64,000 nt of DNA from a phage, in the NCBI GenBank assembly GCA_018296565.1, contig GCA_018296565.1_3935.1; one strand, 5' to 3'. The position numbers and the translations under genes are program-made. Position 1 is the stretch's first letter, and each line of letters begins with the position of its first letter. The notes below the pieces were generated by a model, which had not been told where the DNA came from, did not search any database, and saw only the letters and a program-made list of their open reading frames with translations. Below, one piece after another: positions 5,290 through 31,647 of the stretch.

Positions 5290-5495
5290 TGCTTTACAGT
5301 CGTGAATTGATGGTTACAACTAACGTTAACACAAAGGTAAAACGTTTTTACATGCAAATTTGTGGCGTATGGTCCAGAATATCAGAAGCCGACTATTGCA
5401 ACTATGTAGAAACGGCTATTAATTCTAATTGCTACCTTACAAGAAACACTAAGAAATTTACAAGGCAGACAGCGATTTACTACTACGACAAATAA
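5289..5495 (+). CDS. hypothetical small protein
   Basis: ATG overlaps upstream stop (TAATG), GGAG 10 nt upstream; ORF track start 5274 is an alternative. Confidence 0.5.
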   Translation: MLYSRELMVTTNVNTKVKRFYMQICGVWSRISEADYCNYVETAINSNCYLTRNTKKFTRQTAIYYYDK

Positions 5496-5583
5496 AGTAC
5501 TTTACAGGGGGCTTAAAAGCTGATATCTTAAGCCCCAGATAAAGAGCTTTACTAAATTAACCCTTAAACTAGGAGATTCAAAA

Positions 5584-6053: not shown

Positions 6054-6347
6054 ATGGCTATTATCAAAAACGTTGTAATTACTGCAAAGACTCGTGATGA
6101 CGCTCGCGTTATGGCTAAAAAGTTATGCGGGAAAGTGGTTGACAATGGAAAACAATCTGCTGTAAGGTGGGGCGTGAAGGTTGATAAACAGTTGAAGTTA
6201 AAAAATTCACCGATAAACCTTTTTACATGTGTAAACACTATCGGGAAGACAAATGTATACACAAAAAAGGCATACATTAGACGCGTAGCATTAACATCCC
6301 CCATTCGTACAATGAGAAGTTACGCAAAGCTGAAAATTAACAAATAA
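6054..6347 (+). CDS. hypothetical small protein (cassette gene, type A leader)
   Basis: ATG at 6054 directly after conserved leader; ORF-track start 6039 is TTG inside the leader. Confidence 0.6.
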   Translation: MAIIKNVVITAKTRDDARVMAKKLCGKVVDNGKQSAVRWGVKVDKQLKLKNSPINLFTCVNTIGKTNVYTKKAYIRRVALTSPIRTMRSYAKLKINK

Positions 6348-6432
6348 AGTACTTTACAAGGGGCTTAAAAGTTGATATCTTAAGCCCCAGATAAAGAGCT
6401 TTACCACTAAATCCTAAACTGGAGATTCAAAA

Positions 6433-8613: not shown

Positions 8614-8811
8614 ATGGCTATTATTAACGGCTTAACCATTGAAACTACACACATCAAAGATATCAAAGTTGGCGATATAGTCCTTTCCCACGGCGTAGAA
8701 AAAACTGTCACTGCAAAGGATATCAAAGAGGATTCTTTCATGGGTAGGACTCTCTTCGGTGATTCTTATTGCTTAGGTTATCTTGCAGTTTTAAAAGTTG
8801 TCAAAAATTAA
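8614..8811 (+). CDS. hypothetical small protein (cassette gene, type B leader)
   Basis: Conserved leader plus RBS. Confidence 0.6.
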   Translation: MAIINGLTIETTHIKDIKVGDIVLSHGVEKTVTAKDIKEDSFMGRTLFGDSYCLGYLAVLKVVKN

Positions 8812-8902
8812 CAAATAAAGTACTTTACAAGGGGCTTAAAAGTTGATATCTTAAGCCCCAGATAAAGAGCTTTACACAGTCCTTAAACTAGGAGATTAAA
8901 AA

Positions 8903-11688: not shown

Positions 11689-11937
11689 ATGGCAACTATC
11701 CGCGCAACTGTCAATGCTTATGGCTGTTATACTCTGGACGTTAAATTTGATATTAGTGGAACTGATGAGTGTTTTTCATTAGTGAAGACAGTTATCAAGC
11801 AAGTTATCCCAGATTATAACCCTACTGATGACTTCTGGAAAGATGCTGTAAAAGAGGCATTAAACGACGAGCATCACTATCATTACTGGGGTGACTTGAT
11901 TGTCTCACTGTACTACAATAAACAAGGTTACAACTAA
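11689..11937 (+). CDS. hypothetical small protein (cassette gene, variant type B leader)
   Basis: Conserved leader plus RBS. Confidence 0.6.
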   Translation: MATIRATVNAYGCYTLDVKFDISGTDECFSLVKTVIKQVIPDYNPTDDFWKDAVKEALNDEHHYHYWGDLIVSLYYNKQGYN

Positions 11938-11947
11938 TCGACGCAAC

Positions 11948-12000
11948 GGGGCTAAATAGCCCCAGATACCTGAAAAGCTCCTTCTCATAGGGGCTTTTTT
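11948..12000 (+). terminator. terminator-like hairpins with T-run ending the plus-strand small-gene array
   Basis: ggggctaaatagcccc hairpin, then ...ggggc followed by TTTTTT. Confidence 0.5.
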
Positions 12001-12027
12001 ACGTCTATGTAATAGCCTCTATACAAT

Positions 12028-12050
12028 CCCTTTCCTTTCCTTTCCTTTCC
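12028..12050. repeat. microsatellite (CTTTC)x4
   Basis: ccctttcctttcctttcctttcc. Confidence 0.8.
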
Positions 12051-12419
12051 AGAATCTATCCCACTAATTCGATAGAATCTATCTCATACCTTAAAAGCAA
12101 TAACTCTATAGTCTACTCTATAACCTCTTATCAAATCAACTTAAATAAAAGCCCATAACCCGAAAGGGAAGGGCAACCGTTTAAACGCTCTATAAAGCTC
12201 TATAACAGCCTTATCAACCTAACTTAAGGGATTGCATTAACTCACCCTAAAAAGCTCTTTATAAAGCTTCCTAGAGCCTTAAAAGAATCTTATAAGGGTG
12301 TAAGCTTTATCATCTCGTTAGCTATCTTGTGAATATCTAAAAAGGGCTTGTTATTGTCTTAAAAGTATGTTATATGGGCTTTAAAGTTACTTTGAAGTAG
12401 CTTAAAAGTTACGTAAATG

Positions 12420-13510
12420 CTAGCCCCCTTAACATTTTCTTAACAATTTCTTAACAAACCCTACATAGTTATGCTTTTAAGGCACTTGTTAGCAACTTGT
12501 TAGTCCCTTGTTAAATCTCTGTTAAGACCACGTAAAAGCCTTGTAAGAGTCTTTGACATAGCCTTTAAAGCCCCTGTAAAGCCCTATAAAGAGGTATCTG
12601 TACAGTTGGGGGGTAGATACTAGGAAGAGACTTAAAAGAGCTTACAAGGAGCTATAGAGAGCTTTTAAGAGGTATGTTTAAAGAATCACTAAGAAAGGAA
12701 AGGGAACGATAAGAAAAGAGATAGTGACCATGTTAATAGCTTGTTAAAAAGATTAAACACTTGTTAGAGACTTGTTAATTATCTTAACAAAATAACTCTT
12801 AAAAATTAACTTGTTAGCTCTTGTTAGCCATCTGTTAAGACTCTGTAAAGCCTATGTATCAACTGTTAAGAAACTGTTACGCTCTTGTTAGTTCTGTTGA
12901 GAATCTGTTAAGACCTTTGAAGAGATGTTAAGGAGATGTGAGAACTGTTAAGAGATTGTTAAGGATATTTTAAAATTTTGCAAAGTACTTGTAAGGGAGC
13001 TGTTAAGGGCTACCAAGCAGATATACATCTTCTACAGATATTTTTCAGTTCCTTCAAAGACCCTAAAAAATGACTTGATAGTCCTATTTTATAAAAATTT
13101 TAAAAATCTGAATAATTACCTATACAGTCTTTCTAAAATACAGGTAATAACAGGCTTATAAGATACCTTGTTAGTACCGTGTTAGACCTTGTGAGATAAG
13201 GTCTGTAAAGATATTCCTGTTAAGTTTGTTAAAACAGTCTATATAGAGGCTTAGTAATACCTAGTGAACACCTATAGAGAGTGTCATAGCTAACCTAGAG
13301 ATTAAGAGGTGTATAGGAGCTTCTAAGAGGGTATAGAAAGATGGTTAAGGTGATTGTATAGGTTGTTAAGAAGGCTTGTTAGAGGGCTTGTTAGAAGGGT
13401 TATACAGAGGGCTATTAAGACCACTAGATAGATACTAAGAGACTATATAGTACTATATAACTATATATAGAGAGTAAGCTTAAGAAGGTTGTTAAGAAGG
13501 GTAGATATTT
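12420..13510. repeat. dense array of short iterated motifs (YTGTTAR and reverse complement CTTAACA), non-coding
   Basis: Dozens of cttgttag / ctgttaag / gttgttaag copies, often 10-12 nt apart; no ORF of 60 aa or more in the block. Confidence 0.7.
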
Positions 13511-13604
13511 TGTTCACATATGATGGTGACCCAGAGGTTGGGACAACCGATAAAAATTTTATAAAAATTAAAAAGCCCCCAATTAAGGAGGCTCTTAAGA
13601 TATT

Positions 13605-14228
13605 TTAAATCAGTGTTTCCAGAACTGTTTTTAATGATGACTTGGTTGTCTGATAAAAATGAGTAAAGCCATTGTTGTTATCAAATACCTGCATCATGAT
13701 ATCATCTCCCTTGATTGGGTACACTCGGATATCATAGTGAAAACCATTAAAGACACAAGAGCCATTACAGAATGCACTAAAGTCATCAACTGAGATATAC
13801 TCTTCATGTCCTGTGATTTTTATACAAACACCTTTACTCGGTCTCTTAGGGTTGATATCTTCCATCACAGACATACTCTGTCCACCAAGAGATACCATAG
13901 TGACCACTTTACGGTTCTTCTGTCTAAAGTACATTTTAACTTTCTGCAAAGTGTCTTCATAGAACGGATAAGACCTTTCTACAAAGATTCCTTCAAGTGG
14001 CTCTTTACCATTTTCAACTTCTCTGTTATGCCGTACTGCAAAGATAATTTGTTCGAACCAGTCAAGATTTTCTTCGGAGAGTGCTTCCCGAACATCCTTC
14101 CAGTCAAGTACTAAGTAGTTACCTTCAACTTCTTTTAAGTTATCTTTTTCCATATCTATCACACCATTATCGTAAAACTTGATATTCTGGTACTGCGAAT
14201 TTATTACTATTGTTCTTGATGAGGTCAT
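13605..14228 (-). CDS. hypothetical protein
   Basis: ORF; first Met overlaps upstream gene by about 60 nt, so true start may be the internal Met near 14153. Confidence 0.5.
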   Translation of the reverse strand: MTSSRTIVINSQYQNIKFYDNGVIDMEKDNLKEVEGNYLVLDWKDVREALSEENLDWFEQIIFAVRHNREVENGKEPLEGIFVERSYPFYEDTLQKVKMYFRQKNRKVVTMVSLGGQSMSVMEDINPKRPSKGVCIKITGHEEYISVDDFSAFCNGSCVFNGFHYDIRVYPIKGDDIMMQVFDNNNGFTHFYQTTKSSLKTVLETLI

Positions 14229-25924: not shown

Positions 25925-26329
25925 ATGAAACTTTGTAGAAAATGTTCTCAAGAAAAACCTTTAAGTTGCTTTCATAAAAGAGGGAATGGCTATCAGTCTG
26001 CTTGCAAAGATTGTAAAGCTAAGTACTCGGCAAAGAGATACAAAGAAGACCCTACTTATAAAGCAAAAAGAAAAGTTAGAGCAAAATATGACAAAAAGAG
26101 GAACAGAGAGTTCCTTAGTAGATATAAAAAGTTTTGCAAATGCAGATTATGTGGCGAATCTGAGCCAGTAGCTTTGGATTTTCATCACTTAGACCCTAAA
26201 GAGAAAGATTTTGCTCCAAGCAATCTTAAAACTTACTCTAGAGGAACTATTAAGCGTGAAGTCCGTAAGTGTGTTGTGCTTTGTTCAAACTGTCATAGAA
26301 AAGTTCATGCAGGGCTGTTAAGTATTTAA
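25925..26329 (+). CDS. HNH homing endonuclease
   Basis: Cys-rich N-terminus and LDFHHLDP ... CSNCHRKVH HNH motif; embedded in tRNA array. Confidence 0.7.
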   Translation: MKLCRKCSQEKPLSCFHKRGNGYQSACKDCKAKYSAKRYKEDPTYKAKRKVRAKYDKKRNREFLSRYKKFCKCRLCGESEPVALDFHHLDPKEKDFAPSNLKTYSRGTIKREVRKCVVLCSNCHRKVHAGLLSI

Positions 26330-26342
26330 CAGTCTTATTAGG

Positions 26343-26430
26343 GGTAGGTAGCGGCTAATGGTAGCCAAACTGTCTTGAAAACAGTTGCCACTGTAGAGAT
26401 ACGGTGAGGGTTCGACTCCTTTACTTACCG
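26343..26430 (+). tRNA. tRNA-Ser (anticodon TGA), long variable arm, CCA not encoded
   Basis: Anticodon stem actgt/acagt, loop cttgaaa, long variable arm, T-arm gagggttcgactccttt, discriminator G. Confidence 0.7.
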
Positions 26431-26582
26431 CCTAATAAGATTTAAAGCCAAGCTTCATTCGGATGTTGCTTTGGTATCCCTCGTGTATTGTCGTACACAC
26501 TGATAAAGCACCTAGTAGGTGTCACGGAGAAGAGATAATATCAAGCTCTCCAAAGGTTCTAGTCACCGGATTAAACAAGACT

Positions 26583-26606
26583 ATGCAAAGACCAAATTAG
26601 GTCTTT
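26583..26606 (+). terminator. terminator-like hairpin with T-run
   Basis: aagaccaaattaggtctt followed by TTTT. Confidence 0.4.
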
Positions 26607-26687
26607 TTAGAGGGCTTCTAAGGTTATTACAGCTTGTTGTGGAACATTGTTGCTTAGGTTCTTAGAAGTTCTCTAAAAAGATTTAAT

Positions 26688-26765
26688 GGGAGATTGACGG
26701 TAATTGGTAAACCTACCATCCTTAGAAGTTGGTGTTTGAGGGTTCGAATCCCTTGTCTCCTACCA
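26688..26765 (+). tRNA. tRNA with anticodon TAG (Leu by anticodon) but short variable arm
   Basis: Acceptor gggagat/gtctcct with G-U pairs, anticodon loop cttagaa, T-arm gagggttcgaatccctt, A73, CCA; variable arm only 5 nt. Confidence 0.55.
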
Positions 26766-26772
26766 AATTAAT

Positions 26773-26848
26773 GCAGGTGTAGCAAAATGGTTATGCGGCT
26801 GACTCTTAATCAGTAAGACGATGGGTTCAATTCCCTCCACCTGTACCA
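26773..26848 (+). tRNA. tRNA-Lys (anticodon CTT)
   Basis: Close paralog of the 25134 tRNA; anticodon loop ctcttaa. Confidence 0.7.
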
Positions 26849-26854
26849 GACATT

Positions 26855-26930
26855 GGGGATGTAGTTTACATGGTTAAAACATAAGTTTTGCAAACTTAAG
26901 TACAGGGTTCAATTCCCTGCTTCTCCACCA
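26855..26930 (+). tRNA. tRNA-Ala (anticodon TGC)
   Basis: G3-U70 wobble pair in acceptor stem, anticodon stem taagt/actta, loop tttgcaa, CCA. Confidence 0.75.
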
Positions 26931-26936
26931 ATTAGT

Positions 26937-27011
26937 GCATCCATAGTTTAAACGGGAAAATTACAGTCTTCCAAACTGAGGTTGAGGGTTCGATTCCCTC
27001 TGGATGCTCCA
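26937..27011 (+). tRNA. tRNA-Gly (anticodon TCC)
   Basis: Acceptor gcatcca/tggatgc, anticodon loop cttccaa, T-arm gagggttcgattccctc, CCA. Confidence 0.7.
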
Positions 27012-27017
27012 AACAAT

Positions 27018-27094
27018 GCTGCTTTCGTATAATTGGCTATTACACATCCCTTGTAAGGATGGAAATGCAGGTTCGAGTCCTGTGAGCAGCACCA
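27018..27094 (+). tRNA. tRNA-Thr (anticodon TGT)
   Basis: Anticodon stem catcc/ggatg, loop cttgtaa, T-arm gcaggttcgagtcctgt, CCA. Confidence 0.75.
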
Positions 27095-27190
27095 ATTCAG
27101 AGGTCAAGTGAAAGACCGCTTTGAGTCAACTGAAGACCGTAACAAATTCCACGGAGTTGAGTTAGCGGCACAACTCCAGACCTCTTTCAT

Positions 27191-27265
27191 ACTCGCTTAG
27201 TTTATATGGTAAAACATCACCCTTACAAGATGAAGAAAAAGGTTCAAGTCCTTTAGTGAGTACCA
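27191..27265 (+). tRNA. tRNA-Val (anticodon TAC)
   Basis: D-stem gttt/aaac, anticodon loop cttacaa, T-arm aaaggttcaagtccttt, CCA. Confidence 0.7.
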
Positions 27266-27266
27266 T

Positions 27267-27344
27267 GTTCCAGTATCCCAATTGGCAGAGGATGCAAGCT
27301 CAAACCTTGTACTAGTGACGGTTCGAATCCGTCTTGGAACACCA
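27267..27344 (+). tRNA. tRNA with anticodon CAA (Leu by anticodon) but short variable arm
   Basis: Acceptor gttccag/ttggaac, anticodon stem gcaag/cttgt, loop ctcaaac, T-arm gacggttcgaatccgtc, A73, CCA. Confidence 0.55.
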
Positions 27345-27349
27345 ATTTT

Positions 27350-27425
27350 GCAGGATTAGTTCAAATGGATAGAGCAACAGTCTACGAAGCTGTTAATAGG
27401 GGTTCGAATCCCTTATCCTGCGCCA
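27350..27425 (+). tRNA. tRNA-Arg (anticodon ACG)
   Basis: Perfect acceptor gcaggat/atcctgc, anticodon loop ctacgaa, T-arm aggggttcgaatccctt, CCA. Confidence 0.75.
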
Positions 27426-27443
27426 GATAAGCAAGAGGAATTT

Positions 27444-27686
27444 ATGCAAACATTAATCGTCGTTGAACATGAAAATCCCAATAGTATTGAGTTTGTAAGG
27501 GTTCCCACTATAGATACTCACATTTTCTTGAAAGTCGGATGGGAATGCGACCCGATAAAAGTAGGAAAATTTCTTGGTCATTACTTTGGTGGAAGACAAT
27601 TTAAAAGTATCAATTTTGAGACAGTATTACCAGAAAACTCAGAAACAGACAATAATACTTACCTCCTTACGAGGATTAGACAATGA
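27444..27686 (+). CDS. hypothetical small protein (inside tRNA array)
   Basis: AAGAGGA RBS, ATG start, 80 aa. Confidence 0.5.
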   Translation: MQTLIVVEHENPNSIEFVRVPTIDTHIFLKVGWECDPIKVGKFLGHYFGGRQFKSINFETVLPENSETDNNTYLLTRIRQ

Positions 27687-28240
27687 GATACTTAAAATAT
27701 GTTTCATGGATTTTCTTAGCTTTGTTAGAACCATTTGCAGCAACACTAGCAGTCATCTTAGCACCTTTCGTAGTTCCATTCTACAGTGAGAAGAAAGGGC
27801 ATCTACCTTTTGGATTCAGATGGATGGAGACCTATGACAACCCTATTGATGGTGACAAAGGCCACGTTGAGAGATGGGCTAAGATTAGAAAGATTGGTAA
27901 GCTTGGTGTCTACATGCAGAGAGTTGGATGGCTCTGGAGAAACAAAGCTTATAACTTCTCTTACCATGTATTAGGAAGAGATGTAAAAGACGTTACTAAG
28001 TGGAAAGGTAATATCAACGTAAGTTCTAACCCTGAAGATAATCAAACAGGTTATCTCCTAATGTGGAACAGTAATGCTTGGGGATTATTCGCTTTTATTC
28101 CATCAATTAAAATCTTTGGTAAACAGTTTTACTGGAGAATTTATATTGGATGGAAACTTAAAAGTGTTGTCCCAGAAGAAAGAGCATTCTCAAGGGAAAG
28201 AGTTATGTTGGCATTCTTTATTCATCCACTGAGAAAGTAA
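27683..28240 (+). CDS. hypothetical membrane-anchored protein (inside tRNA array)
   Basis: N-terminal hydrophobic segment WIFLALLEPFAATLAVILAPFVVPF; 185 aa. Confidence 0.5.
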   Translation: MRYLKYVSWIFLALLEPFAATLAVILAPFVVPFYSEKKGHLPFGFRWMETYDNPIDGDKGHVERWAKIRKIGKLGVYMQRVGWLWRNKAYNFSYHVLGRDVKDVTKWKGNINVSSNPEDNQTGYLLMWNSNAWGLFAFIPSIKIFGKQFYWRIYIGWKLKSVVPEERAFSRERVMLAFFIHPLRK

Positions 28241-28248
28241 AGATTTAA

Positions 28249-28324
28249 AGGGGATTAGTTTACAAGGTTAAAACCTCGGTCTTTGAAATCGAAGAAGTTG
28301 GTTCAATTCCAACATCCCCCGCCA
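28249..28324 (+). tRNA. tRNA-Gln (anticodon TTG)
   Basis: Anticodon loop ctttgaa, unpaired position 1-72 (A-C), T-arm gttggttcaattccaac, CCA. Confidence 0.7.
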
Positions 28325-28326
28325 AT

Positions 28327-28405
28327 GCTCCATTACTCCAATTGGCAGAGAGGCCAGACTTAAAATCTGTGTTATGTATCGGTTCGAATCCGATATGGAG
28401 TACCA
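28327..28405 (+). tRNA. tRNA with anticodon TAA (Leu by anticodon), variable arm about 7 nt
   Basis: Acceptor gctccat/atggagt, anticodon loop cttaaaa, T-arm atcggttcgaatccgat, A73, CCA. Confidence 0.55.
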
Positions 28406-28410
28406 AATTT

Positions 28411-28486
28411 AGCGGTATAGCATAACTGGCAATGCAACAGTCTCTGAAGCTGTCCTATTAAGGTTCAAATCCTTATGCCGCTGCCA
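28411..28486 (+). tRNA. tRNA-Gln (anticodon CTG)
   Basis: D-stem gcat/atgc, anticodon stem acagt/gctgt, loop ctctgaa, T-arm taaggttcaaatcctta, CCA. Confidence 0.7.
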
Positions 28487-28517
28487 CTTCTAAGGATTCT
28501 TACGAGAGTCCTTAAAT

Positions 28518-28593
28518 GTGGCCTTATCATAAAAGGTAATGACCCATGCTGTGAACATGGTCTATACGGGTTCAAATCCCGTAGGTCACCCCA
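28518..28593 (+). tRNA. tRNA-His (anticodon GTG)
   Basis: D-stem tcat/atga, anticodon stem ccatg/catgg, loop ctgtgaa, T-arm acgggttcaaatcccgt, CCA. Confidence 0.7.
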
Positions 28594-28598
28594 ATTTA

Positions 28599-28675
28599 TA
28601 GTCCAAGTAGCTTATATGGTTAAAGCGCGTGTCTGAAAAACATGAGAAGAGGGTTCAAATCCCACTGGACTACCA
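28599..28675 (+). tRNA. tRNA-Phe (anticodon GAA), ends approximate
   Basis: D-stem gctt/aagc, anticodon stem cgtgt/acatg, loop ctgaaaa, T-loop ttcaaat; acceptor register ambiguous. Confidence 0.55.
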
Positions 28676-28691
28676 ATTTCAAAGGTGCTTA

Positions 28692-29426
28692 ATGAAAGAG
28701 ATGACAGAACAAGGTAAGGAGATTTTTAATCTCTTAAAAACCGGTAAAGGGTTCTCTAACCCACTTATTACTGGTGCAGCAGTTCTCGGTGGAACCGTAG
28801 CTGCTTCTACATCACTTGTAAGCTCTATTAGTTCTGTAACAGACCCTACAATGAAGGAGAAACTTGTTGCTGCTGGACTTACAACAGTCCTTCTAAACAG
28901 CTTTACAACAAGCCTTACAAGCACTACAGCAACTACTAAGACCCTAACAGACTACGGTCAAAAGTCTATTGATGAGTTTTCATCACGTATGCAGGTAGCA
29001 AAGGGGTACTCCAATGTTATGGGTGCAGCAGGAGAACAAGTTGGTTGTACACCATTCAGTGGTATTATGGGTGTTGCTACAGAGTATGGTCAAAAAGCTA
29101 TTGACATGATGAACAGTACACTAGATAGTGTTAATGGTGTGTTAAGTGACTTACAAGATGCTATTGATAAGGGTCTTGATACTGTTTCTGATTTAGCTAA
29201 TCAGGCTGTTAGTAAGATTAATGAAGGTATTTCAAAGATTACAGCTTATGCAGATGAAGTTGTGCAGATGATTGAAGAAGAAGCTGCCCTTATTGCAGAG
29301 TACCTTAAAACGAATATCAATGGGTTCTTAGCAGGTGTCTTACCAGACTGGTTTGATGATGCCTGTAAAACTGGTGTGATTGACACTATTGCAACACCAG
29401 AAATGAAGAGCGCATTACAGAAATAA
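28692..29426 (+). CDS. hypothetical protein (Ser/Thr/Ala-rich)
   Basis: ORF-track start 28629 overlaps tRNA-Phe, so internal ATG at 28692 is preferred. Confidence 0.5.
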   Translation: MKEMTEQGKEIFNLLKTGKGFSNPLITGAAVLGGTVAASTSLVSSISSVTDPTMKEKLVAAGLTTVLLNSFTTSLTSTTATTKTLTDYGQKSIDEFSSRMQVAKGYSNVMGAAGEQVGCTPFSGIMGVATEYGQKAIDMMNSTLDSVNGVLSDLQDAIDKGLDTVSDLANQAVSKINEGISKITAYADEVVQMIEEEAALIAEYLKTNINGFLAGVLPDWFDDACKTGVIDTIATPEMKSALQK

Positions 29427-29428
29427 AT

Positions 29429-29521
29429 GGAAGATTAACCCTAAAAGGTAAGGGAGCAGTTTGCTAAACTGCCAGTAGCTGAGAAATCGGTGTACCAGTT
29501 CAAGTCTGGTATCTTCCTCCA
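29429..29521 (+). tRNA. tRNA-Ser (anticodon GCT), long variable arm
   Basis: Perfect acceptor ggaagat/atcttcc, anticodon stem gcagt/actgc, loop ttgctaa, long variable arm, T-arm accagttcaagtctggt, CCA. Confidence 0.75.
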
Positions 29522-29525
29522 ATTT

Positions 29526-29601
29526 GAATCCGTGACAGAAATGGCCATGTGCCTGTCTGCAAAACAGGTTTATAAGGGTTCGAGTCCCTTCGGATTCTCC
29601 A
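29526..29601 (+). tRNA. tRNA-Cys (anticodon GCA)
   Basis: Acceptor gaatccg/cggattc, anticodon stem cctgt/acagg, loop ctgcaaa, T-arm aagggttcgagtccctt, CCA. Confidence 0.75.
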
Positions 29602-30024: not shown

Positions 30025-30045
30025 TTCTATTTGCGGAGGTGCTTA

Positions 30046-31647
30046 ATGGATTTAAATGCTGTTAAGCAGAAGCGAGTGGAAGATGTTAGGAAAGTCCTAG
30101 CTGGAGAGTTGGGGCTTTCTGATGAAGTAAAAGAAATTATCAAATCATTCGGTAAAGACCCCTCTAAATTCCTTCCAACTCAAATTCTGACTTTATTAAG
30201 ATACACACCAGACCAAGTTAGACTTATCTTCAAATTGATGACTGATAAGAACTATGTAGCCCCTCAGCCGGGTTCTCAAGAGGTCTTTTTAAATACTAAT
30301 GCTGACTTGGTTCTTTATGGTGGTGCTGCTGGTGCTGGTAAAACTGCTGCATTGTTAATGGACTCTTTAAGATTTATTGAAGACCCTAACTATAATGCTG
30401 TATATTTCCGTCGAAATACAACACAGTTACAAGGTGGTTTATGGCCTGCTGCAAAGAAACTATTTGGTAAGTTTGGTGGGATTCCTCATGAGCAGAAAAT
30501 GACTATCACATTCCCTTCTGGGGCAACTATCAAGTTTACCTATCTAGAACTTGAAAAGCACGCTGAAGGTCATCAGGGTATTGAATACTCAGCTATTTAC
30601 TTTGACGAAGGTACACACTTCTCTGCTTCACAGATTTCATACCTACAAACCCGTCTACGTTCTGGTGCTGAAGGTGATTCATACATGAAGATTTCCATGA
30701 ACCCAGACAGAGACCACTTTATTTACGATTGGGTAGAACCATTCTTAGATGAAGAAGGTTATCCAGACCCTGAAAAGTGTGGTCGTATTCGTTGGTATGT
30801 AATGAATGATGGTGTGATGGTTTCTGATTGGGAGAGAGACAAGATTCTTGAAATGTTCCCTCTTGAGATTCCTCAAACATACACCTTCATCTCTGGTACG
30901 ATTGACGATAACCCAATTCTTGACTTCTTAGAACCAAAGTATCGCGGTAAGCTTGAAAACAACACTCCTGTAAACGTTGCAAGACTTCGTTTCGGTAACT
31001 GGAAGGCTCGTGCAGAAGGTTCAAACTACTGGCAAAGACAATGGTGTGAGATTGTTGATTCACTCCCAGAAGATGTGTTTGATGTTAGAGCATGGGACTT
31101 AGCAGCAACTTTACCATCTGAGATTAACCCTAATCCAGACTGGACAGCAGGTGTTAAGATGGGTAAATCTAAAAAAGACGGTTGCTATTATATCATTGAT
31201 GTAGTAAGATTTAGAGATAGACCCTCTGGAGTCGAAACACAAATTAATTTGACTGCTGAAAGTGACGGTAAGCGAACTGGTATTTTTATCCCTCAAGACC
31301 CAGGCGCTGCTGGTAAATCCTACGCAACATCCCTCATCAGGAAACTTGCCGAGAAAGGCTATCGTGCAAGAGCTAAACCAACAAATAAAGATAAAGTTAC
31401 CCGATTTGCGGGGTTTTCTGCTGCTTCTGAAGCTGGACTTGTAAAAGTCTTGAGAGGTAGTTGGAATGAAGCTTACTTTCAAGAGCTTGAAGGCTTTTGT
31501 GGTGATGGCAAAACTAAAGATGACCAAGTGGATGCTACCAGTGATGCTTTCAACAGTCTTAACGAAGTTAAATTATTCAAGCCACCATCAATGGGTGCTC
31601 ACACAGACTTAGTGAGAGGAAACCCATATGAGGGGCTTAGACGTTGA
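30046..31647 (+). CDS. terL: terminase large subunit
   Basis: Walker A-like VLYGGAAGAGKTAAL in N-terminal ATPase region, acidic nuclease-like C-terminal region; GGAGG RBS before ATG 30046. Confidence 0.75.
   Translation: MDLNAVKQKRVEDVRKVLAGELGLSDEVKEIIKSFGKDPSKFLPTQILTLLRYTPDQVRLIFKLMTDKNYVAPQPGSQEVFLNTNADLVLYGGAAGAGKTAALLMDSLRFIEDPNYNAVYFRRNTTQLQGGLWPAAKKLFGKFGGIPHEQKMTITFPSGATIKFTYLELEKHAEGHQGIEYSAIYFDEGTHFSASQISYLQTRLRSGAEGDSYMKISMNPDRDHFIYDWVEPFLDEEGYPDPEKCGRIRWYVMNDGVMVSDWERDKILEMFPLEIPQTYTFISGTIDDNPILDFLEPKYRGKLENNTPVNVARLRFGNWKARAEGSNYWQRQWCEIVDSLPEDVFDVRAWDLAATLPSEINPNPDWTAGVKMGKSKKDGCYYIIDVVRFRDRPSGVETQINLTAESDGKRTGIFIPQDPGAAGKSYATSLIRKLAEKGYRARAKPTNKDKVTRFAGFSAASEAGLVKVLRGSWNEAYFQELEGFCGDGKTKDDQVDATSDAFNSLNEVKLFKPPSMGAHTDLVRGNPYEGLRR

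Follow-up and report, generated by a model that had tools for sequence, protein, structure and literature searches.

What function can a long stretch of phage DNA serve when it carries no gene and is filled with short repeats? This question is raised by a block at positions 11940–13604 of a 64,000-nucleotide phage contig (GCA_018296565.1_3935.1; the whole stretch that was analyzed is called the window below). The original prediction, made from the letters of the DNA, considered a replication origin, a partition or centromere-like site, and a packaging-related site. Our analysis indicates that the block is probably the concatemer-junction region, and hence the packaging site, of a Felix O1-like (Ounavirinae) myovirus. 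A direct terminal repeat (DTR) is predicted in its center, and arrays of short units with a period of about one helical turn surround the two places where the DNA would be cut.

Genome ends in the block

The block matches 257 phage records, and the identity along the whole block reaches 94.6%. Almost all of these records are Felix O1-like myoviruses, and the matching genera of the Ounavirinae are Felixounavirus, Mooglevirus, and Suspvirus. The window is, by sequence similarity, a Felixounavirus genome. The matches were sampled down the ranking, and both ends were compared for six records that begin or end inside the block. At least ten deposited records from several laboratories, including E9 and NBEco004, start or end at the homologue of position 12423. 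All six of the records compared at both ends carry an exact DTR of 570–613 bp that opens with GCCCCCTTAACA and closes with TGTTAAGGGCTACC:

Ro111lw (Felixounavirus), exact DTR of 613 bp
SPJ41 (Felixounavirus), exact DTR of 613 bp
ZX4221 (Felixounavirus), exact DTR of 591 bp
D4 (Felixounavirus), exact DTR of 581 bp
I14.1 (Felix O1-like, filed in GenBank under Tequintavirus), exact DTR of 581 bp
HP1 (Mooglevirus), exact DTR of 570 bp

The ends of Ro111lw, D4, and HP1 were placed on the window by blast at 12423 and 13014, and the first and last 70 nt of the repeat in the window are identical to those of Ro111lw. The physical genome ends of the relatives are located in the block at two fixed, sequence-invariant positions. 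The corresponding features of the window are as follows:

12423–13014, unstranded, predicted 592-bp DTR, starting with GCCCCCTTAACA and ending with TGTTAAGGGCTACC, placed by homology to the ends of the relatives
13001–13027, unstranded, right DTR boundary, with TGTTAAGGGCTACC before the terminus and AAGCAGATATACA after it

The segment 12423–13014 is therefore predicted, by this homology, to be present at both ends of the virion DNA. Each boundary sequence occurs once in the window, and the repeat is present in one copy. The concatemer-junction form or a circularized assembly would show a single copy, which accounts for this finding. Homology thus points to fixed, non-permuted ends at unique positions, and the deposited sequences of six close relatives place the same sequence at both virion ends. 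These results strongly support the packaging-related site that the original prediction had named as one of its possibilities.

The right boundary is almost invariant across the genomes of our block alignment, which comprised 12 genomes of three genera (the window and 11 relatives) and was scored in 50-bp bins; a single substitution was found, in SUSP1. Read inward, the left end is TGCTA^GCCCCCTTAACA-N5-TTAACA, where the caret marks the terminus. The right end, read inward on the bottom strand, is TGCTT^GGTAGCCCTTAACA-N6-TTACAA and mirrors the left boundary. RNA folding gave no notable secondary structure at either DTR boundary.

A short DTR in Felix O1-like phages is already known from genome announcements. 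PhageTerm assigned a 613-bp T7-like DTR to Ro111lw (PMC6454146), and DTRs have been published for Philippine isolates (PMC11737134) and, as short DTRs, for Erwinia phages of the genus Kolesnikvirus (PMC11984208); these assignments are based on PhageTerm analysis of sequencing reads. HP1 was described as carrying direct repeats at its two ends (PMC9120918). Pulsed-field sizing of Felix O1 suggested short terminal repeats, and the block is not discussed in the Felix O1 genome paper (PMC3185647). In a limited literature search, we found statements that the DTR exists and no description of its sequence anatomy in Felix O1-like phages.

Two of the deposited records deserve a remark of their own. 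PP892526.1 (vB_EcoM_I14.1) is filed under Tequintavirus, and its ends form a Felix O1-type 581-bp DTR identical to that of D4. GU169904.1 ("Staphylococcus phage SA1") contains this Felix O1-like block at ~91% identity, a sign that the record may be mixed or chimeric.

Phased repeat units

The motif YTGTTAR occurs 26 times in 11940–13604, with 23 copies on the plus strand and 3 on the minus strand. This is 23-fold denser than in the rest of the 64-kb window, where the background is ~0.6 per kb per strand, and no 500-bp bin outside the block contains four or more copies of TGTTAR. Successive TGTTA motifs on the plus strand are separated by exactly 11 bp in 10 of 28 cases. Within the predicted DTR, the self-identity at lag 11 is 0.473 (z = 9.1), compared with a background of 0.269 ± 0.022 and a maximum of 0.328 in ~200 segments. 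Weaker self-identity peaks are observed in both flanks of the block at lags of 10–12, with harmonics at 21–22 and 31–32. The spacing autocorrelation thus confirms the earlier description of dense YTGTTAR-type motifs at roughly helical intervals.

A single 8-bp frame, CT-N4-AG, covers the cttgttag, ctgttaag, cttaaaag, and ...ataaag motifs. It occurs 62 times in the 1665 bp of the block, compared with 5.3 ± 2.3 in shuffled sequences, and the spacing is ~11 bp. The frames CT-N3-AG and CT-N5-AG are depleted to 0.5-fold in the block. The strictness of the CT-N4-AG frame and the depletion of its neighbors suggest recognition rather than drift. The A/T/G-rich form of the unit is 12-fold denser in the block than in the rest of the window. 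The original prediction had listed cttaaaag and ataaag as additional repeats; ataaag is enriched only ~2-fold. CTTAAAAG is present in five copies on the plus strand and two on the minus strand of the block. Overall, the block consists of ~60 CT-N4-AG units, mostly CTTGTTAG or CTGTTAAG in the DTR, about one helical turn apart. Two arrays are distinguished within the DTR:

12429–12457, minus strand, three TTAACA units, 11 bp apart, in the reverse orientation of the motif, at the left edge of the DTR
12485–13007, plus strand, 19 TGTTA(R) units (CTTGTTAG or CTGTTAAG) within the DTR, mostly 11 bp or ~2–3 periods (20, 31 bp) apart

Degenerate CT-N4-AG units are interspersed among the TGTTA(R) units of 12485–13007.

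Organization of the non-coding block

The longest open reading frames (ORFs) within 11940–13604 are 31, 33, and 39 aa. The claim that the block contains no ORF of 60 aa or more was therefore correct. Each of the six frames contains 37–53 stop codons, and the lag-3 coding signal is missing from the self-identity profile. The neighboring genes converge on the block, as had also been proposed; the last plus-strand ORF stops at 11937, and the end of the minus-strand ORF is at 13605. The GC skew switches at the block, exactly where the gene orientation switches. In the deposited relatives, the block has no annotation, is marked with bare "repeat_region" features, or is given non-conserved small ORF calls. 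The parts of the block outside the DTR are as follows:

11948–12001, plus strand, two tandem terminator hairpins (11948–11963 and 11972–11999) followed by a U run, closing the plus-strand gene block
12002–12422, unstranded, right-end spacer, non-coding, directly before the DTR, with A/T-rich CT-N4-AG units (CTTAAAAG, CTATAAAG, CTTATAAG, and CTTTAAAG) ~10–11 bp apart
12029–12050, unstranded, microsatellite of CCTTT × 4.4 (Tandem Repeats Finder)
13015–13570, unstranded, left-end spacer, non-coding, directly after the DTR, with TGTTAR clusters, TATAGAG-type units, and A/T-rich stretches
13571–13596, minus strand, terminator closing the minus-strand gene block (consensus scan)

The tandem hairpins at 11948–12001 have an RNA folding energy of −25.6 kcal/mol (z = −4.3), which was equaled by none of 200 shuffles, and a terminator is annotated at the homologous place in Moogle. 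The folding energy of 13571–13596 is −15.2 kcal/mol (z = −3.0), and both KhF1 and Moogle annotate a homologous terminator. With a terminator on each side, the block is shielded from the converging transcription.

The positions of the relatives' ends identify 12002–12422 as the non-coding tail of the genome right end and 13015–13570 as the non-coding head of the left end. The right-end spacer contains 14 CT-N4-AG copies, and its self-identity reaches z ~4 at lags 10–11. In the left-end spacer, the TGTTAR clusters are located at 13167–13233, 13362–13396, and 13488–13496, and the A/T-rich stretches at ~13085–13115 and ~13545–13575. The microsatellite at 12029–12050 corresponds to the CTTTC tetrad noticed previously. 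It has one unit more than in all 11 of the aligned relatives. The adjoining stretch (12040–12089) is the least conserved of the block, with large insertions and deletions. The microsatellite is probably a slippage product without a function of its own.

Conservation among relatives

In the alignment, ~85–95% of the window positions are shared per 50-bp bin, except at the block ends and next to the microsatellite. In comparisons between genera, 77–100% of the length of the three block parts can be aligned, with 76–86% identity; for the adjacent protein genes, the aligned share is 6–91%, or there is no alignment at all. The right-end spacer shares 80–86% identity with Mooglevirus and Suspvirus, which is above the neighboring genes, and the left-end spacer shares 77–80% with other genera and 89–97% inside the genus. 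By these alignments, conservation of the block equals or exceeds that of the adjacent genes. The TTAACA triplet at 12429–12457 is kept in all 12 genomes, and heid has a fourth copy. Several insertions or deletions in the DTR are exactly 11 bp, corresponding to one unit, and the steps between the deposited DTR lengths (570, 581, 591/592, and 613 bp) are approximately multiples of 11. A VpaE1-specific insert in the DTR is ~20 bp long.

The Erwinia phages are more distant, and merely ~130 bp at the right boundary still aligns. Their equivalent block is 1.4 kb long, non-coding, and built on the same plan. A flank array made of CTTCTAAG or TTCTAAAC units is followed by the terminus, after which T(T/A)ACA units, three to four in number, recur every 11 bp, and the left-edge equivalent reads TTTACA/TTAACA/TTAACA. 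The block also contains many TGTTAAG units, with further TGTTAAG clusters before the terminator. Outside the right boundary, phiEa104 and Prophecy retain AAGCAGATATACA or AAGTAGATATACA, and the Prophecy record starts one base before the position homologous to 12423. The layout is kept where the alignment is lost, which speaks for selection acting on the motif and on how it is arranged and against a neutral satellite.

Two kinds of insertion were observed in the relatives. A palindromic insert of ~22–24 bp, with the core GGGATTGGTAACAATACCAATT or its reverse complement, occurs at three different sites in the DTR, after window positions 12691 (VpaE1), 12784 (Ro111lw), and 12869 (heid). This 22-bp insertion is not present in the window. 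With a length of roughly two 11-bp units, it resembles a very small hairpin, either mobile or derived from template switching. A 25-bp insertion, ATGAGGTAGATTCTACCGAATCAAC, follows window position 13029, just beyond the right DTR boundary, in three phages (JH2, VpaE1, and Moogle); neither the window nor any of the other eight aligned genomes has it. Because it occurs in more than one genus, it is not a simple lineage marker.

Candidate packaging proteins

Three features elsewhere in the window bear on packaging:

30031–31647, plus strand, TerL, the large terminase (Pfam Terminase_6N, E = 2e-43; Terminase_6C, E = 4e-33)
22002–22373, plus strand, 123-aa DUF5681 protein (Pfam PF18932, E = 2.3e-14)
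21901–21991, plus strand, A/T-rich CT-N4-AG cluster of five copies in the leader of the DUF5681 gene

TerL is presumed to be the nuclease that cuts at the DTR boundaries. The cluster at 21901–21991 is the sole other A/T-rich CT-N4-AG cluster in the window, and it may be linked to the DTR array. In phiEa104, CTTAAAAG-CTTTAAAG-CTGTAAAG are arranged at 11-bp spacing upstream of the DUF5681 homologue. The DUF5681 protein possesses an invariant basic N-terminal motif, KGQSGNPSGRPKG (the GNPSGRPKG arm). In two unrelated phage contigs, distant DUF5681 homologues are encoded directly upstream of, and overlapping, the gene for the large terminase. A position upstream of TerL is usual for a small terminase gene; therefore, the DUF5681 protein is a candidate, if a weak one, for the small terminase or a DNA-recognition subunit, and it may represent an unrecognized small-terminase family. 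A search of the PDB with the DUF5681 protein gave no sequence match. No comparable array was found in the intergenic DNA upstream of the distant DUF5681-TerL pairs. For the 66-aa ORF upstream of TerL, the Pfam and PHROGs scans returned families of unknown function only.

A 471-aa DUF2828/DUF7788 protein is encoded at 22455–23870, and an array of 27 tRNA genes (24036–29601) follows directly downstream. This insert, comprising the DUF2828/DUF7788 and tRNA genes, lies between the DUF5681 gene and the terminase and portal genes. In the PhageMaP preprint, a Bas63 protein at the same position, directly upstream of the tRNA genes, was likened to the Ro60 protein.

Proposed mechanism of terminal repeat formation

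If the block is the packaging site, its phased units would make up a one-sided surface to which an oligomeric packaging protein binds. This protein would most likely be the small terminase, for which the DUF5681 protein is the candidate. An array for a phage DNA-binding protein, which the original prediction also proposed, is a reasonable reading of the repeats. Inward from either end, the DNA to be packaged would begin with 5'-TGCT(A/T)^G..CCCTTAACA, and more TTAACA units would come next. Placed mirror-wise at the two boundaries, the same complex could guide TerL to nicks in opposite strands, and each packaged genome would then receive its own copy of the DTR by strand-displacement synthesis through the repeat, as in the classical T7 scheme of the Watson type. 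The repeat could also let replicated genomes join into concatemers.

We tentatively extend this scheme to a packaging nucleoprotein scaffold. The ~60 phased CT-N4-AG sites would be coated by a small-terminase family represented by DUF5681, which would regulate its own synthesis through the units in its leader, and the mirrored TTAACA arrays would specify the opposite-strand nicks. This extension is possible but doubtful as a whole. If true, it would be the first sequence-level model of the duplication of a short terminal repeat by a myovirus.

Several points weigh against the packaging scheme or parts of it. The termini of the window phage are assigned through homology, and the window itself carries one copy of the repeat. 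The symmetry of the boundaries is imperfect because the cut would lie 3 nt from CCCTTAACA at one boundary and 5 nt at the other, and the two boundaries can also be read as direct repeats of GCTA(G)CC. The binding of a protein to the array is a step that we infer. The DUF5681 gene is ~7.7 kb from TerL in the window. The structure model of the DUF5681 protein is of moderate quality (pLDDT 68), and a Foldseek search with it gave no significant match, with two small terminases at E = 3.6–4.6. A test of co-variation was negative; the Erwinia flank unit CTTCTAAG is not found upstream of the Erwinia DUF5681 gene, whose leader carries CTTAAAAG-type units instead. Finally, an origin function could share the DNA of the block, although this is unlikely.

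Alternative explanations

Such an origin would be of the iteron type, with the units binding a phage or host initiator that melts an adjacent A/T-rich stretch, and it could exist instead of or besides the DTR role. The dense phased repeats, the two A/T-rich stretches of the left-end spacer, and the location at the GC-skew switch are in line with it. However, neither a DnaA box (up to one mismatch) nor an IHF consensus was found in the block. The skew changes exactly where the gene orientation does and is therefore uninformative. The repeats are centered on the DTR and its boundaries, and packaging explains them without an origin. The only Chi site of the window is located at 20000, far from the block. 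None of the six flanking ORFs has a Pfam match, and their PHROGs matches are families of unknown function only; therefore, no initiator or partition gene is identifiable among them. This last result bears equally on a partition or centromere-like site, at which an adaptor would bind the repeats for segregation, as with the 11-bp repeats of R1 parC. Arrays of ~11-bp repeats do resemble the centromeres of type II plasmids. The relatives are virulent Ounavirinae, and a virulent group has no need for a partition site. Moreover, no gene for a partition ATPase/NTPase or an adaptor is recognizable beside the block, and the array coincides with the virion DNA ends. Of the functions put forward in the original prediction, an origin is thus not supported, and a partition site is scarcely conceivable.

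The block could also be a functionless satellite, if the DTR needs its boundaries and length and the 11-bp units arose from replication slippage or out-of-register annealing. The unit-sized insertions and deletions among the relatives, the corresponding steps in DTR length, and the variable copy number of the microsatellite would be explained in this way. Against it, conservation of the block in three genera is no lower than that of the neighboring genes, the TGTTAAG/TTAACA motif and its orientation pattern persist in the otherwise unalignable Erwinia phages, and the CT-N4-AG frame is strict, with N3 and N5 depleted. We consider a satellite very unlikely. A transcriptional element, either a cluster of phage-specific promoters or small-RNA genes, is highly improbable. 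The CT-N4-AG units in the leader of the gene at 22002 would fit such an element; however, nine promoter-like sites were found in the block compared with 5.7 ± 2.2 expected, which is no excess, and the block has no Rfam match and no tRNA. The flanking genes point inward and stop at the terminators, and nothing is placed for expression from the block. A T5-like injection-stop region was our first guess; it was dropped after the similarity search showed Felixounavirus.

Other intergenic elements and significance

Apart from the block, an intergenic element of ~60 bp, ACAAATAAAGTACTTTACAAGGGGCTTAAAAGTTGATATCTTAAGCCCCAGATAAAGAGC, occurs in three copies between small early genes (5488–5547, 6340–6399, and 8811–8870). 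It forms a hairpin with CTTAAAAG in the loop. Felix O1 contains 57-bp intergenic direct repeats (PMC3185647), and the element looks like their counterpart with a different loop sequence.

Felix O1-like phages are widely used in diagnostics, biocontrol, and therapy directed at Salmonella and E. coli. Most of the deposited genomes were opened arbitrarily, with the block left unannotated or filled with spurious small ORFs. The predicted DTR at 12423–13014, with its invariant boundaries, would provide a simple rule for orienting and completing such genomes. It would also define the cis element needed for engineering approaches that rely on packaging, such as transducing plasmids and the rebooting of genomes. 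The fixed cuts, the mirrored boundaries, and a candidate recognition protein could make these phages a tractable system for the duplication of terminal repeats, which is poorly understood.

Comparison with known systems

Iteron origins and R1 parC consist of tandem repeats of ~11 bp that are bound cooperatively. The tandem ~11-bp repeats of the block are similar in this respect. In contrast, the array described here is located at the virion ends of a virulent phage, without DnaA boxes and without recognizable initiator, partition, or adaptor genes nearby.

In the R sites of lambda cosB and in pacL and pacR of SPP1, the terminase cut is flanked by short repeated boxes that share one helical face and are bound by the oligomeric small terminase. 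Those sites have a handful of boxes over 100–250 bp and serve cos or headful packaging. The block differs from them in having dozens of units over 1.6 kb and two fixed cut sites, and here we infer the binding.

Arrays of short imperfect repeats, for example CCTAAAG, also surround the T7 repeat. The predicted ends resemble the T7-type DTR in that an exact, non-permuted short repeat is present at both virion ends and one junction copy is present in the replicating DNA. The T7 junction is a cis-acting packaging signal, and plasmids carrying the T7 origin and the junction were packaged, as Chung and Hinkle (1990) are cited in later papers (PMC13236587, PMC4281155). The repeat in the Felix O1-like phages is about four times longer than that of T7 (570–613 bp versus 160 bp), and the window phage is a myovirus with a T4-type (Terminase_6) large terminase. 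Its junction is also much larger, with 1.6 kb of non-coding DNA and ~60 phased CT-N4-AG units. The genes at both ends point outward here, whereas the leading end of T7 has early promoters that read inward. A further difference from T7 is the pair of mirrored TTAACA arrays at the two boundaries.

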